4,715 bases of DNA from a virus (Duplodnaviria > Heunggongvirae > Uroviricota > Caudoviricetes): the IMG/VR virus record IMGVR_UViG_2667527792_000004; one strand, written 5' to 3'. The notes under the pieces are model-generated. The model was given only the letters and a program-made list of their open reading frames with translations. It was not told the DNA's origin and made no database searches. Numbering within the stretch: the stretch's first letter is position 1; each line of letters starts with the position of its first letter. Positions 1-4,715 of the stretch are shown here, piece after piece. Position numbers and translations under genes: made by a program.

Positions 1-425
1 AATTAGACCAGCAATATCTAAAAGATCTACTTATCGCATTCGAAAAAACTCATGGCCCTGACACGATGCTTAGTGAACTAGAGGATAATGGCTTTAATAG
101 ATATGACCAAAATTTTATTTTCCATATGCGATTATTATGCGACTACGAATTAATAGTCAGGGTTGATGGAAAACCTGGGTTCGGTCATATAATGTCCAAC
201 GAGTTAGGGGAAGGTGTTGGATATAGTTGGATCGAAGTACCACTGAGGTTGACAGCAAGAGGGCATGATTTTATTGCTGACTTGCGTCAAAAGGAGGTCT
301 GGCAAACTATAAAAACAAACTTTAAGGATGAGGGAATTAGTACACTAATAAGTGTTTCAAAATCACTAGCAAAAGGCTTTGCAAGGAAAAAGATAAAAGA
401 TATTACAGGAATAGATATTGAATAA
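1..425 (+). CDS. 5'-partial hypothetical phage accessory protein (ea-region moron; tentatively resembles DUF2513-type small phage proteins)
   Basis: The frame is open from base 3 to TAA 423-425 (141 codons). There is no in-frame start before ATG 66 and no Shine-Dalgarno in front of ATG 66, so the true start is probably just upstream of the window. The segment is visibly AT-rich compared with the rest of the window. It sits where ea8.5 lies in phage lambda. The family assignment is from memory of motif spacing only. Confidence 0.55.
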   Translation, partial: LDQQYLKDLLIAFEKTHGPDTMLSELEDNGFNRYDQNFIFHMRLLCDYELIVRVDGKPGFGHIMSNELGEGVGYSWIEVPLRLTARGHDFIADLRQKEVWQTIKTNFKDEGISTLISVSKSLAKGFARKKIKDITGIDIE

Positions 426-469
426 TTCTTAGCATCAGCAACTACTGCCTTTGGTGGAAATTATATCTG

Positions 470-496
470 AACTCGCTACGGCGAGTTTTGTTTTAT
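470..496 (+). terminator. Putative intrinsic terminator hairpin (AACTCGC-TACG-GCGAGTT) followed by a T-rich tract
   Basis: Perfect 7-bp inverted repeat at 470-476 and 481-487 with a 4-nt loop, then TTGTTTTAT. Lies between the accessory ORF and the 55-aa ORF. Confidence 0.4.
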
Positions 497-507
497 GGAG
501 ATGATAA

Positions 508-675
508 ATGCACTTCCGAGTCACAGGTGAATGGAATGGAGAACCATTCAACAGAGTTATCGAAGCAGAGAACATCAATGACTGCTATGACCACTGGATG
601 ATATGGGCCCAGATAGCACATGCAGACATAACCAATATTCGAATTGAAGAACTGAAAGAACACCAAGCCGCCTGA
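508..675 (+). CDS. Small hypothetical protein, 55 aa, matching the lambda ORF between ea8.5 and xis (orf55 / lambdap35-like)
   Basis: ATG 508 is preceded by GGAG at 497-500 (7-nt spacing). Translation is MHFRVTGEWNGEPFNRVIEAENINDCYDHWMIWAQIAHADITNIRIEELKEHQAA, near-identical to my recollection of the lambda ORF at this position. It is below the 60-aa cutoff of the supplied ORF track. Confidence 0.7.
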   Translation: MHFRVTGEWNGEPFNRVIEAENINDCYDHWMIWAQIAHADITNIRIEELKEHQAA

Positions 676-690
676 TGGCGGTTTTTTCTT
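666..690 (+). terminator. Putative intrinsic terminator (GCCGCC-TGAT-GGCGG stem-loop plus T6 run); the stop codon of the 55-aa ORF lies in the loop
   Basis: Inverted repeat 667-672 / 677-681 followed by TTTTTT at 682-687. Confidence 0.45.
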
Positions 691-702
691 GCGTGTAATT
701 GC
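689..702 (+). promoter_or_regulatory. cII-type activator site TTGC-N6-TTGC of the int promoter pI (-35 region)
   Basis: TTGCGTGTAATTGC has direct TTGC repeats 6 nt apart, the arrangement of cII sites at lambda pRE, pI and paQ. Its position puts the transcription start inside the first codons of xis, as known for pI. Confidence 0.55.
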
Positions 703-714
703 GGAGACTTTGCG

Positions 715-933
715 ATGTACTTGACACTTCAGGAGTGGAACGCTCGCCAGCGACGCCCAAGAAGCCTTGAAACAGTTCGTCGATGGGTGCGCGAATGCAG
801 GATATTCCCTCCTCCGGTTAAGGATGGAAGAGAATATCTGTTCCACGAATCAGCGGTAAAGGTTGACTTAAATCGACCAGTAACAGGTAGCCTTTTGAAG
901 AGGATCAGAAATGGGAAGAAGGCGAAGTCATGA
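715..933 (+). CDS. xis: Excisionase Xis (lambda-type), 72 aa
   Basis: Full-length ORF whose translation (MYLTLQEWNARQRRPRSLETVRRWVRECRIFPPPVKDGREYLFHESAVKVDLNRPVTGSLLKRIRNGKKAKS) matches lambda Xis as I recall it. GGAG lies 8 nt upstream. Its 3' end overlaps int by 23 bp, as in lambda. Confidence 0.95.
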   Translation: MYLTLQEWNARQRRPRSLETVRRWVRECRIFPPPVKDGREYLFHESAVKVDLNRPVTGSLLKRIRNGKKAKS

Positions 934-1981
934 GCGCCGGGATTTACCCCCTAACCTTTATATAAGAAACAATGGATATTACTGCTACAGGGACCCAAGG
1001 ACGGGTAAAGAGTTTGGATTAGGCCGAGACAGGCGAATCGCAATCACTGAAGCTATACAGGCCAACATTGAGTTATTTTCAGGACACAAACACAAGCCTC
1101 TGACAGCGAGAATCAACAGTGATAATTCCGTTACGTTACATTCATGGCTTGATCGCTACGAAAAAATCCTGGCCAGCAGAGGAATCAAGCAGAAGACACT
1201 CATAAATTACATGAGCAAAATTAAAGCAATAAGGAGGGGTCTGCCTGATGCTCCACTTGAAGACATCACCACAAAAGAAATTGCGGCAATGCTCAATGGA
1301 TACATAGACGAGGGAAAGGCGGCATCAGCCAAGTTAATCAGATCAACACTGAGCGATGCATTCCGAGAGGCTATGGCTGAAGGCCATATAACAACAAACC
1401 CGGTCGCAGCCACTCGCGCTGCAAAATCAGAGGTAAGGAGATCAAGACTTACGGCTGACGAATACCTGAAAATTTATCAAGCAGCAGAATCATCACCATG
1501 TTGGCTTAGACTTGCAATGGAACTGGCTGTTGTTACCGGGCAGCGAGTTGGTGATTTATGCGAAATGAAGTGGTCTGATATCGTAGATGGATATCTTTAT
1601 GTCGAGCAAAGCAAAACAGGCGTAAAAATTGCCATCCCAACAACATTGCATGTTGATGCTCTCGGGATATCAATGAAGGAAACACTTGATAAATGCAAAA
1701 AGATTCTTGGCGGAGAAACCATAATTGCATCTACTCGTCGTGAACCGCTTTCATCCGGCACAGTATCAAGGTATTTTATGCGCGCACGAAAAGCATCAGG
1801 TCTCTCCTTCGAAGGGGATCCGCCAACCTTTCACGAGTTGCGCAGTTTGTCTGCAAGACTCTATGAGAAGCAGATAAGCGATAAATTTGCTCAACATCTT
1901 CTCGGGCATAAGTCGGACACCATGGCATCACAGTATCGTGATGACAGAGGCAGGGAGTGGGACAAAATTGAAATCAAATAA
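911..1981 (+). CDS. int: Tyrosine site-specific integrase Int (lambda-type), 356 aa
   Basis: The 356-aa translation begins MGRRRSHERRDLPPNLYIRNNGYYCYRDPRTGKEFGLGRDRRIAITEAIQ and ends HLLGHKSDTMASQYRDDRGREWDKIEIK, matching lambda Int apart from a few substitutions. It contains the BamHI site (GGATCC 1816-1821) characteristic of lambda int. Confidence 0.97.
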   Translation: MGRRRSHERRDLPPNLYIRNNGYYCYRDPRTGKEFGLGRDRRIAITEAIQANIELFSGHKHKPLTARINSDNSVTLHSWLDRYEKILASRGIKQKTLINYMSKIKAIRRGLPDAPLEDITTKEIAAMLNGYIDEGKAASAKLIRSTLSDAFREAMAEGHITTNPVAATRAAKSEVRRSRLTADEYLKIYQAAESSPCWLRLAMELAVVTGQRVGDLCEMKWSDIVDGYLYVEQSKTGVKIAIPTTLHVDALGISMKETLDKCKKILGGETIIASTRREPLSSGTVSRYFMRARKASGLSFEGDPPTFHELRSLSARLYEKQISDKFAQHLLGHKSDTMASQYRDDRGREWDKIEIK

Positions 1982-2009
1982 TGATTTTATTTTGACTGAT
2001 AGTGACCTG
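1978..2009 (+). other. Int arm-type binding sites P'3, P'2, P'1 of the P' arm
   Basis: ATAATGATTTT (1978-1988), ATTTTGACTGA (1989-1999) and ATAGTGACCTG (1999-2009) are reverse complements of the arm-type consensus C/AAGTCACTAT. P'3 overlaps the int stop codon. Confidence 0.7.
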
Positions 2010-2016
2010 TTCGTTG

Positions 2017-2030
2017 CAACAAATTGATAA
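2017..2030 (+). other. IHF binding site H' of attL
   Basis: CAACAAATTGATAA fits the reverse complement of the IHF consensus WATCAANNNNTTR (YAANNNNTTGATW). Confidence 0.55.
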
Positions 2031-2035
2031 GCAAT

Positions 2036-2069
2036 GCTTTTTTATAATGCCAACTTAGTATAAAAAAGC
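2036..2069 (+). repeat. Perfect 11-bp inverted repeat (GCTTTTTTATA ... TATAAAAAAGC) spanning the inner P' arm and the core
   Basis: Seen directly: 2036-2046 and 2059-2069 are reverse complements separated by 12 nt. It is an intrinsic feature of lambda att DNA. Confidence 0.8.
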
Positions 2070-2115
2070 AGGCTTCAACGGATTCATTTTTCTATTTCAT
2101 AGCCCGGAGCAACCT

Positions 2116-2140
2116 GTGAACACATTTTCAGTTTCCCGTC
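2116..2140 (+). pseudogene. ybhC: 5' remnant of ybhC (first ~8 codons with its RBS), the host gene flanking att-lambda on the gal side
   Basis: GGAG at 2106-2109 then GTG 2116. Translation VNTFSVSR matches the N-terminus I recall for YbhC (MNTFSVSRLALALAF...). The frame then diverges and stops at TGA 2161-2163. Confidence 0.4.
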
Positions 2141-2384
2141 AGCAACAGCGGCCCCAGGTCTGAAACCGTCGCCCGTACCGAATGGCCTTTCTCGCCAAAG
2201 ATATCCCACACCACCACCGGATTAGCATGCGGTTGCCAGTCATTTACGCCGATATTTTTAAGCCTTGCGAGCAGTTTTTCCCCCTGGTTAAATACGCCAG
2301 AAGTCTTGCTGATTACGCTCGATGGCAGCGAAGTTCCCGACGTGCTGGCGGATTATTTGCGCCGCTTTCAGCCTGATTGGGTGG

Positions 2385-2522
2385 ATAGCCGAGTTGCAGA
2401 GTATGCAGCGTTCCTTGCAACGCCTTAACGATGCCTGTTGTGGGACCGCCCATAGCAGTGTTTATTGTTCGATTCTTGAAGCTCTTGAACAAGGGGCGAG
2501 TGGCGTTAAGAGTGGCTGTTGA
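2385..2522 (+). pseudogene. zntR: 3' fragment of zntR (MerR-family Zn-responsive regulator), last ~45 codons only
   Basis: Translation IAELQSMQRSLQRLNDACCGTAHSSVYCSILEALEQGASGVKSGC matches ZntR residues ~97-141, including the metal ligands C114, C115, H119 and C124. There is no start and no HTH domain, and the upstream sequence in this frame is unrelated with stops at 2289 and 2310. Confidence 0.7.
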
Positions 2523-2577
2523 TTTTTTGCACTGGCAGGATTACACTCGCGCCGTAAAATAACCAATTGGAGTTTTT

Positions 2578-2796
2578 ATGAGCCGATATCAGCATACTAA
2601 AGGGCAGATAAAGGATAATGCGATAGAAGCATTACTACATGATCCCTTATTCCGACAGCGCGTAGAGAAAAATAAGAAGGGGAAAGGCAGTTACATGCGA
2701 AAAGGAAAACATGGCAATCGGGGGAACTGGGAGGCCAGTGGCAAGAAAGTAAATCACTTTTTTACCACTGGTCTTCTGCTTTCAGGCGCTTGTTAA
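2578..2796 (+). CDS. arfA: Alternative ribosome-rescue factor A (ArfA / YhdL), 72 aa, intact
   Basis: Translation [72 protein letters not shown] matches E. coli ArfA as I recall it. GGAG at 2569-2572 lies 5 nt upstream of the ATG. It is directly downstream of zntR on the same strand, as in K-12. Confidence 0.85.
2733..2773 (+). promoter_or_regulatory. Stem-loop inside the arfA 3' coding region (candidate RNase III processing hairpin)
   Basis: CCAGTGG at 2735-2741 pairs with CCACTGG at 2765-2771, with further imperfect pairing inside. arfA mRNA is known to be cleaved by RNase III in a 3' hairpin to give a non-stop mRNA regulated by tmRNA. Confidence 0.5.
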
Positions 2797-2808
2797 GAGC
2801 GGTTATGC

Positions 2809-3087
2809 ATGATCGGCGACCCGACTGGCGCCCTGACCCGTAACTTCGACAACATGCGTGAAGATGAAGGTCTGGCTGATCGTGCGACCTTCGTTGTTGA
2901 CCCGCAGGGTATCATCCAGGCAATCGAAGTTACCGCTGAAGGCATTGGCCGTGACGCGTCTGACCTGCTGCGTAAAATCAAAGCAGCACAGTACGTAGCT
3001 TCTCACCCAGGTGAAGTTTGCCCGGCTAAATGGAAAGAAGGTGAAGCAACTCTGGCTCCGTCTCTGGACCTGGTTGGTAAAATCTAA
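2809..3087 (+). pseudogene. ahpC: C-terminal half of AhpC (alkyl hydroperoxide reductase, peroxiredoxin subunit), 5'-truncated
   Basis: Translation [92 protein letters not shown] matches AhpC residues ~96-187. The resolving Cys in VCPAKW is present, but the N-terminal peroxidatic Cys region is absent. The M at 2809 is an internal Met of AhpC. Confidence 0.85.
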
Positions 3088-3106
3088 GTTCCGCAATCGC
3101 GTAATT

Positions 3107-3136
3107 AATCGGGTGCTGCGGCACCCGATTTTCTTC
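3107..3136 (+). terminator. Intrinsic terminator/attenuator between ahpC and ahpF
   Basis: 10-bp stem AATCGGGTGC / GCACCCGATT (3107-3116 / 3121-3130) with loop TGCG, followed by a T-rich run. It lies 20 nt after the ahpC stop. Confidence 0.6.
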
Positions 3137-3215
3137 CCCGCACCATGATGCAAGCTGCATCCAGGTAGCCGCAGAGGCCGCTTGCATGATGATGTTTAAA
3201 GCCCAGGAGATAAAC

Positions 3216-4199
3216 ATGCTCGACACAAATATGAAAACTCAACTCAAGGCTTACCTTGAGAAATTGACCAAGCCTGTTGAGTTAATTGCCACGCTGGATG
3301 ACAGCGCTAAATCGGCAGAAATCAAGGAACTGTTGGCTGAAATCGCAGAACTGTCAGACAAAGTCACCTTTAAAGAAGATAACAGCTTGCCGGTGCGTAA
3401 GCCGTCTTTCCTGATCACCAACCCAGGTTCCAACCAGGGGCCACGTTTTGCAGGCTCCCCGCTGGGCCACGAGTTCACCTCGCTGGTACTGGCGTTGCTG
3501 TGGACCGGTGGTCATCCGTCGAAAGAAGCGCAGTCTCTGCTGGAGCAGATTCGCCATATTGACGGTGATTTTGAATTCGAAACCTATTACTCGCTCTCTT
3601 GCCACAACTGCCCGGACGTGGTGCAGGCGCTGAACCTGATGAGCGTACTGAACCCGCGCATCAAGCACACTGCAATTGACGGCGGCACCTTCCAGAACGA
3701 AATCACCGATCGCAACGTGATGGGCGTTCCGGCAGTGTTCGTAAACGGGAAAGAGTTTGGTCAGGGCCGCATGACGTTGACTGAAATCGTTGCCAAAATT
3801 GATACTGGCGCGGAAAAACGTGCGGCAGAAGAGCTGAACAAGCGTGATGCTTATGACGTATTAATCGTCGGTTCCGGCCCGGCGGGTGCAGCGGCAGCAA
3901 TTTACTCCGCACGTAAAGGCATCCGTACCGGTCTGATGGGCGAACGTTTTGGTGGTCAGATCCTCGATACCGTTGATATCGAAAACTACATTTCTGTACC
4001 GAAGACTGAAGGGCAGAAGCTGGCAGGCGCACTGAAAGTTCACGTTGATGAATACGACGTTGATGTGATCGACAGCCAGAGCGCCAGCAAACTGATCCCG
4101 GCAGCGGTTGACCAGCACGTTTTCCGCAGCTGTGGGTCAAAGAGGCATGATGCGACGCTTGTTCCTGCGCTTTGTTCATGCCGGATACGGCTAATGTAG
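3216..4199 (+). pseudogene. ahpF: ahpF (alkyl hydroperoxide reductase subunit F), 3'-truncated: homology covers about the first 298 codons, then unrelated sequence to a stop
   Basis: AGGAGA at 3205-3210 then ATG 3216. Translation [29 protein letters not shown] ... [17 protein letters not shown] ... [12 protein letters not shown] matches the AhpF N-terminal domain and the start of the FAD domain. After ~4110 it reads [29 protein letters not shown]-stop instead of the AhpF sequence EGGLHQIETASG... Confidence 0.85.
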
Positions 4200-4212
4200 A
4201 TCGCTGAACTTG

Positions 4213-4240
4213 TAGGCCTGATAAGCGCAGCGTATCAGGC
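4213..4240 (+). repeat. REP-like palindromic element (GTAGGCCTGATA ... TATCAGGC)
   Basis: GCCTGATA at 4216-4223 and TATCAGGC at 4233-4240 are reverse complements around a 9-nt centre, preceded by GTAG. Another REP-like motif (GATGCGACGCTT) lies about 60 bp upstream. Confidence 0.5.
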
Positions 4241-4271
4241 AATTTTTATAATTTAAACTGACGATTCAACT

Positions 4272-4430
4272 TTATAATCTTTGAAAAATATCGCCAGAGA
4301 CGAACGGGAAACTGATACACAGCAACCCGACGATAAACAACAGCACGGCAATAAACTGGATTGCTCTGCGATGTTTTTTAAGCATCTCCAGATCAAACTT
4401 CAAAATTGTTGCCTTATCTATATATAACAT
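4272..4430 (-). CDS. Hypothetical small hydrophobic protein, 52 aa (single predicted TM helix)
   Basis: Minus-strand ORF giving MLYIDKATILKFDLEMLKKHRRAIQFIAVLLFIVGLLCISFPFVSGDIFQRL. GGTGG lies 4 nt upstream of the ATG. It has a charged N-terminal part followed by a ~22-residue hydrophobic stretch. It is absent from the ORF track because it is under 60 aa, and I do not recognise it. Confidence 0.3.
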   Translation of the reverse strand: MLYIDKATILKFDLEMLKKHRRAIQFIAVLLFIVGLLCISFPFVSGDIFQRL

Positions 4431-4469
4431 AGAACCACCCTATAAAATTAAGAAGAAAATCCCCTGCTA

Positions 4470-4715
4470 TCAATCTATGCCAAAAACGCGTCTAAGAATG
4501 CAGTCGGAGGGCCATTCCGGCAGTACGCTCAGAATATGGCGCAGATACGCTTCCGGATCGATACCGTTCAGACGGCAGGTGCCGATCAGCCCGTACAGCA
4601 GTGCTCCACGCTCGCCGCCGTGATCGCTACCGAAGAACACGTAATTTTTCTTTCCGAGACAGACTGCACGAAGCGCTCTTTCCGCTGTGTTATTGTCCAC
4701 CTCCGCCAGACCGTC
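4470..4715 (-). CDS. IS66-family transposase (TnpC-like), C-terminal 81 codons; the 5' part lies beyond the window end
   Basis: Minus-strand translation ...DGLAEVDNNTAERALRAVCLGKKNYVFFGSDHGGERGALLYGLIGTCRLNGIDPEAYLRHILSVLPEWP... carries the conserved IS66 transposase C-terminal signature (DNN-AER-LR ... GRKN-F-GS ... LNG-DPEAYL). The frame is open to the window edge. The M at 4700 in the ORF track is a GTG within the protein. Confidence 0.7.
   Translation of the reverse strand, partial: DGLAEVDNNTAERALRAVCLGKKNYVFFGSDHGGERGALLYGLIGTCRLNGIDPEAYLRHILSVLPEWPSDCILRRVFGID
4470..4715 (-). mobile_element. 3' portion of an IS66-family insertion sequence; element boundary not identified
   Basis: Transposase fragment as above. 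No GTAAGCG-type terminal inverted repeat is visible between 4200 and 4470. Confidence 0.5.

Follow-up and report, generated by a model that had tools for sequence, protein, structure and literature searches.

The arfA block of a mosaic 4.7-kb Escherichia coli contig is probably a fragment of the native zntR–arfA–mscL locus, joined to unrelated sequences during draft assembly

The gene arfA (yhdL), which encodes the alternative ribosome-rescue factor ArfA, is found in Escherichia coli within the locus zntR–arfA–mscL. Its transcript contains a stem-loop at which RNase III cleaves or transcription ends, which yields a non-stop mRNA that is normally silenced by trans-translation (PMC3989581). A paper of 2023 reported that arfA antisense RNA regulates MscL (PMC10070815). 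The window analysed here, a stretch of DNA of 4,715 nt, contains a block with a complete arfA gene. The block is like the native locus over 424 nt at 100% identity, with the 72-codon open reading frame (ORF), the spacer, the ribosome-binding site (RBS) and the inverted repeat. Only the context differs, as zntR is interrupted at codon 96 and the last 14 nt of mscL are all that remains of that gene.

As a whole, the window resembles chimeric short-read draft contigs. It is a small orphan contig in which pieces of unlinked loci, between a read and a contig in size, are chained together, with a single 'n' at a join, overlap-free joins and a unique record. It is unlike such contigs in having six N-free joins, one with two extra bases. 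Nor is there evident merging of the kind on which GapFiller depends, a program described as leaving a gap open unless the extensions from its two sides can be merged (PMC3446322). The window also shares with alternative end joining and MMBIR the joining of unrelated sequences with overlaps of 0–3 nt and the occasional filler. Those events, however, comprise a single join or a few and favour microhomology, whereas seven joins are found here within 2.6 kb, with overlap at the level of chance and an 'n' at one of them. The contig is probably a scaffolding or assembly chimera, and the arfA block a normal fragment of the sole native zntR–arfA–mscL locus.

The arfA block and its native locus

When the window was compared by megablast with 5,426 complete E. 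coli genomes, positions 2383–2806 were found to be identical (424/424) to the native zntR–arfA–mscL locus of E. coli M8 and of many other strains. The native M8 copy of the locus (L001) was taken as the reference for the features of this piece, termed tile 4 (Table 1). A first-pass annotation made from the sequence had placed a block at 2385–2808, with the tail of zntR and arfA adjacent and co-oriented as in K-12. The arrangement is confirmed by the identity to the native locus, and the coordinates were correct to within 2 nt. The zntR tail consists of the last 140 nt of the gene, with the stop codon at 2520–2522, and codons 97–141 read IAELQ...SGC. Missing are 95 codons and the first base of codon 96, since position 2383 corresponds to nucleotide 287 of zntR, the second base of that codon. 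The helix-turn-helix domain of ZntR is not in the tile, in agreement with the earlier description of a zntR lacking its first ~96 codons including the DNA-binding domain. A terminator-like hairpin of 10 pairs followed by a T-rich run lies at 2435–2458 within the zntR tail; it is no more than a match to the consensus, and such sites are as numerous in the region as expected from shuffled sequence.

The gene arfA itself is intact, as had been proposed together with its RBS and 3′ hairpin. Its product passes the ArfA family profile (Pfam PF03889) with a score of 89.5 bits (cut-off 25.5 bits; E = 9e-26). The region 2715–2806, which includes the 26-bp hairpin, folds with −38 kcal/mol (z = −5.6), and none of 200 shuffled sequences was equally stable. 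By identity to the native gene, the hairpin is taken to be the stem-loop of the literature, that is, the RNase III or premature-termination element. The spacer between zntR and arfA contains a promoter-like match, CTGGCA-17-TAAAAT at 2532–2560, which agrees with the consensus at 9 of 12 positions (consensus match only). As the native spacer, the promoter-like match, the RBS, the ORF and the hairpin are all kept, expression of ArfA from the tile would be formally possible, judging from sequence. Expressibility is a property of the native gene, and the question is meaningful only if the structure is real.

Tile 4 ends 10 nt past the arfA stop codon, within the last codons of the convergent mscL. 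In the native locus the 3′ ends of the arfA and mscL coding sequences share 4 nt (L001 1911–1924 corresponds to 2793–2806). The native synteny is thus reduced to 140 nt of zntR and 14 nt of mscL, followed by unrelated tiles. This loss concerns the surroundings of arfA and leaves its identity as a gene untouched. The arfA block is single-copy in 5,426 of the 5,426 complete genomes, always within zntR–arfA–mscL. It was matched at 5,438 places in total; the surplus places probably reflect matches that were split, not second copies of the block, and the one listed record with two places matches the query partly. An Rfam scan of the window returned nothing at the gathering threshold.

Tiles and joins of the contig

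Local BLAST against fetched native loci resolved the window into at least eight unrelated E. coli tiles, whose native loci are scattered around the chromosome and whose orientations are mixed. After the prophage/ybhC piece of 2.1 kb, the pieces measure 140, 104, 424, 1303, ~175, ~220 and at least 209 nt. Tiles 2–5 and 7 are exact to the fetched loci, tiles 6 and 8 are a few SNPs off, and no sequence decay was found in the tiles.

Table 1. Tiles, sub-features and join-spanning ORFs of the window. Positions are those of the window.
Feature	Positions	Strand	Remarks
Tile 1, right end of a lambdoid prophage remnant and start of ybhC	1–2140	+	Genome matches all end at 2140
DUF2513 gene (tile 1)	to 425	+	
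orf55 (tile 1)	508–675	+	
xis (tile 1)	715–933	+	
int (tile 1)	911–1981	+	
P′-core-B att (tile 1)	~2056–2070	+	
ybhC start (tile 1)	2116–2140	+	First 25 nt
Gap mark 'n'	2141	none	ybhC/yjgR (tile 1/tile 2) boundary, mapped independently before the 'n' comparison
Tile 2, internal piece of yjgR	2142–2281	−	140 nt; zero mismatches to the native locus (L003) over 2141–2281
Tile 3, internal piece of an accessory slipin-family gene	2282–2385	+	104 nt; exact match (L004)
66-aa ORF ending in the ZntR tail	2322–2522	+	
Tile 4a, zntR 3′ tail	2383–2522	+	zntR nt 287–426; codons 97–141 and stop at 2385–2522
Tile 4b, native zntR–arfA spacer	2523–2577	+	55 nt; GGAG Shine-Dalgarno at 2568–2571
Tile 4c, arfA, complete	2578–2796	+	72-codon ORF; same sequence as native WP_000092696.1 (RefSeq annotation)
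arfA internal 3′ hairpin	2723–2783	+	26 bp; agrees with the stem-loop expected of arfA
Tile 4d, mscL 3′ end	2793–2806	−	Last 14 nt, 4 codons and stop; tile 4 ends at 2806
Filler 'GC'	2807–2808	none	From neither neighbouring tile; best match in 5,426 genomes stops at 2806
Tile 5, ahpC 3′ part, ahpC–ahpF spacer and ahpF 5′ part	2809–4111	+	92 codons of ahpC; first 299 codons of ahpF
AhpF residues 1–299 with a 28-residue tail from the cynX-end/REP region	3186–4199	+	337 aa with upstream start
Tile 6, cynX 3′ end, REP element and lacA 3′ end	4112–4286	+	lacA antisense; 2 SNPs relative to K-12
HdeD N-terminus with foreign tail	4272–4430	−	
Tile 7, hdeD 5′ part and hdeD–hdeA spacer	4285–4506	−	First 146 nt of hdeD (antisense), 76 nt of spacer; 100% identity
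TnpC C-terminus with foreign tail	4470–4700	−	
Tile 8, internal piece of IS66-family tnpC, to the contig end	4507–4715	−	99.1–99.5% identity

Tile 1 matches E. coli ATCC 8739 and many other genomes at 100% identity, with one mismatch to the ATCC 8739 record that was fetched; phage matches to the tile stop at 2069–2073. Its prophage remnant lies at its normal site upstream of ybhC, and its int–xis region is 97.8–99.1% identical to lambda, 434, HK106 and mEp332. The gene from which tile 3 derives belongs to the slipin family (SPFH), stands beside yjbD and is accessory, being present in 1,631 of the 5,426 complete genomes. The first-pass annotation had the arfA block next to att-lambda sequence. 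This is not so: the start of ybhC and the yjgR and slipin pieces intervene between the att core and the block.

Tile 5 is 99.9% identical in the BLAST alignment, with one gap at the join, and exact across 2809–4111. The ahpC part complementary to it ends in '...AAATATGCG', and the complementary ahpF part starts at codon 300. As an alternative to the 'GC' filler, the ahpC sequence can be aligned from 2804 with a 1-nt deletion and a shared TAT, an alignment that needs one gap. The SNPs of tile 6 are at 4117 and 4187, and a REP-type palindromic element occupies 4200–4250, between the ends of cynX and lacA.

The overlaps at the seven joins, all of which lie within 2.6 kb, are 1, 0, 3, 0, 1, 2 and 1 nt. 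The 3-nt overlap is the GGA at 2383–2385, common to tiles 3 and 4, where the arfA tile begins. The overlaps sum to 8 nt; a simple chance model of random sequences abutting bluntly predicts 4.7 (P = 0.13). As this is at the level of chance, the joins show no use of homology. Junction alignments revealed no IS ends, att cores, direct repeats or target duplications, and no shared restriction site at the seven joins. The joins are located inside coding sequences (zntR, mscL, ahpC, ahpF, cynX, lacA, hdeD and tnpC). No join has the features of mobile-element or site-specific recombination, since the IS66 tile is an internal piece of tnpC and 70 nt separate the att core from the first join. No N is present at six of the seven joins, and one join has two extra bases.

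Four other routes to such a mosaic were considered and rejected. An RNA-derived mosaic, made by template switching of a reverse transcriptase, does not fit the mixed polarity, as yjgR, lacA, hdeD and tnpC are antisense and the other genes sense. Ligation at restriction sites, as in 3C/Hi-C or in a Sau3AI library, would leave a site common to the seven joins, and none was found; GATC and CATG occur near the arfA/ahpC join. For repeat-mediated misassembly at shared k-mers, the overlaps are merely 0–3 nt. A divergent source of the slipin and yjgR tiles, which scored 95.9% and 99.3% in BLAST, was dismissed because these values stem from spurious extension across the joins, both tiles being exact.

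Source of the contig and origin of the joins

In an exact protein look-up, the 337-aa ORF made of AhpF′ and its tail (with the longer start of the gene caller) was recorded on CDRT01000831.1 alone. This is a single contig of 4,715 nt, and therefore the window is the whole of that contig. CDRT01000831.1, contig number 831 of assembly GCA_001373215.1, is a small orphan contig in a fragmented draft of more than 830 contigs. Exact look-ups of the 327-aa AhpF′ and of the 66-aa chimeric ORF found neither on record. The 92-aa C-terminal product of AhpC (2809–3087, from an internal Met start) is found in 891 blocks of the gene-position index. These records probably come mostly from frameshifted ahpC, as most of the six places shown have broken-up neighbouring genes of the kind seen in error-rich assemblies. 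Because this AhpC tail is common in frameshifted assemblies, an exact look-up with it is not specific.

Between the deposited contig (L014) and the window there is one difference in sequence: the deposit has 'n' at 2141, for which the window gives 'A'. A gap placeholder therefore stands exactly at the boundary between the unlinked ybhC and yjgR sequences, as is found in chimeras, where a genuine rearrangement would have determined, unambiguous sequence. A lone 'n' where unlinked sequences meet marks a scaffold join with an unresolved gap, and the ybhC/yjgR join, at least, was not read through. Both joins flanking the arfA tile carry defined bases, and they are as blunt and as devoid of any signature as the rest. 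Replacement of the 'n' by 'A' had concealed this decisive clue, the sole explicit sign of a gap, from the first reading.

The mosaic is unique to this record. No place covering at least 80% of the window, or of 2120–2830, was found in any of the 5,426 complete E. coli genomes, nor in phage and plasmid records. Strings spanning the junctions had no matches in genome, viral and metagenome contig collections, and no join was seen in an independent genome or record.

Assembly or scaffolding is the best explanation of these observations. Small, unrelated E. coli fragments would have been strung together while the draft was assembled or scaffolded, the prophage/ybhC piece of 2.1 kb being extended by a chain of short pieces. 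One join would have kept its 'n' placeholder; the others would have been closed without real overlap, one of them with two stray bases. It is presumed that software, and not the cell, made the joins, the six N-free ones arising by the same process. These six, closed without overlap, are the weak point of the software reading, as true merging of contigs normally needs real overlap, and the 2-nt 'GC' is unlike simple concatenation. It may be that some reads did cross these joins, which would suggest physical chimeras. The mosaic could indeed be a physical molecule made in vitro, from sheared fragments ligated in a blunt-end library or by ligation followed by phi29 whole-genome amplification, which would also be an artefact. 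The joins are blunt, without signature and at chance-level overlap, the tiles of 100–1300 nt follow each other in random order and orientation, the record is unique, and six N-free joins with a 2-nt filler are more easily obtained from real end processing than from software. However, an 'n' exactly at a join is unexpected in a well-covered molecule that was read through, and a single chimeric molecule would need amplification to assemble over 4.7 kb. Ligation in vitro is accordingly considered rather unlikely, though it deserves more weight than the readings that follow.

A genuine rearrangement in vivo is very improbable. In this reading ybhC would have been broken, and fragments would have been captured or copied there through homology-independent alternative end joining or MMBIR/FoSTeS-like serial template switching. 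Overlaps of 0–3 nt and a small filler are also produced by end joining, the undecayed tiles would fit a recent event, and the block, which keeps its spacer with the promoter-like match, its RBS and its hairpin, could be expressed. Against this stand the 'n' at one join, the absence of the joins and of a second arfA copy from the 5,426 complete genomes, and the succession of seven joins in 2.6 kb of a 4.7-kb orphan contig from a highly fragmented draft. Alternative end joining and MMBIR reportedly rely mostly on microhomology, whereas the overlap here is no greater than chance. That a break in ybhC by the lambdoid prophage remnant was healed with at least seven short fragments, in a chromothripsis-like or templated-insertion event, is likewise hardly credible. 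Least probable of all is a mixed or contaminated sample, or a host other than E. coli with integrated E. coli fragments, such as an NHEJ-proficient organism or a transgene array with carrier DNA. The slipin and IS66 tiles are indeed absent from ATCC 8739-like genomes, the ATCC 8739 record having six places for the eight tiles; as tiles 3 and 8 are thus missing from the perfect matches of tile 1, the tiles need not share one strain. But the contig resembles E. coli at every base and has no foreign flank, all tile types occur together in many E. coli genomes (BR1220, for example, with 10 places), and the 'n' favours a join made by software.

Meaning for arfA and for the public record

The arfA block looks displaced because a short draft contig is a patchwork of unrelated pieces of the genome. 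Of the first-pass annotation, the statement that the block is out of its native context is upheld by the tile map; the implication of a displaced, potentially expressible second copy in a real genome is not, the contig being in all likelihood chimeric. Since assembly or scaffolding is the best explanation, the contig provides no evidence for a displaced arfA copy in the organism. Were such a copy real, the cross-talk between arfA and MscL would be lost, since only the last 14 nt of mscL are included in the tile. If the rearrangement had taken place in vivo, the contig would contain a second, promoter-proximal copy of arfA, accompanied by a dead remnant of zntR and no longer coupled to mscL or to read-through from zntR. 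The mosaic would then be an unusual case of multi-fragment end joining in E. coli, and a natural experiment on how arfA is regulated when taken out of the context in which it overlaps mscL.

The gene arfA and its regulation are already known, and on present evidence the displacement is not a real feature. The present value of the analysis lies in quality control. The public contig CDRT01000831.1 is flagged as chimeric, and its fused ORFs are not to be treated as genes, the AhpF′-tail fusion being already a called gene in a public protein collection.
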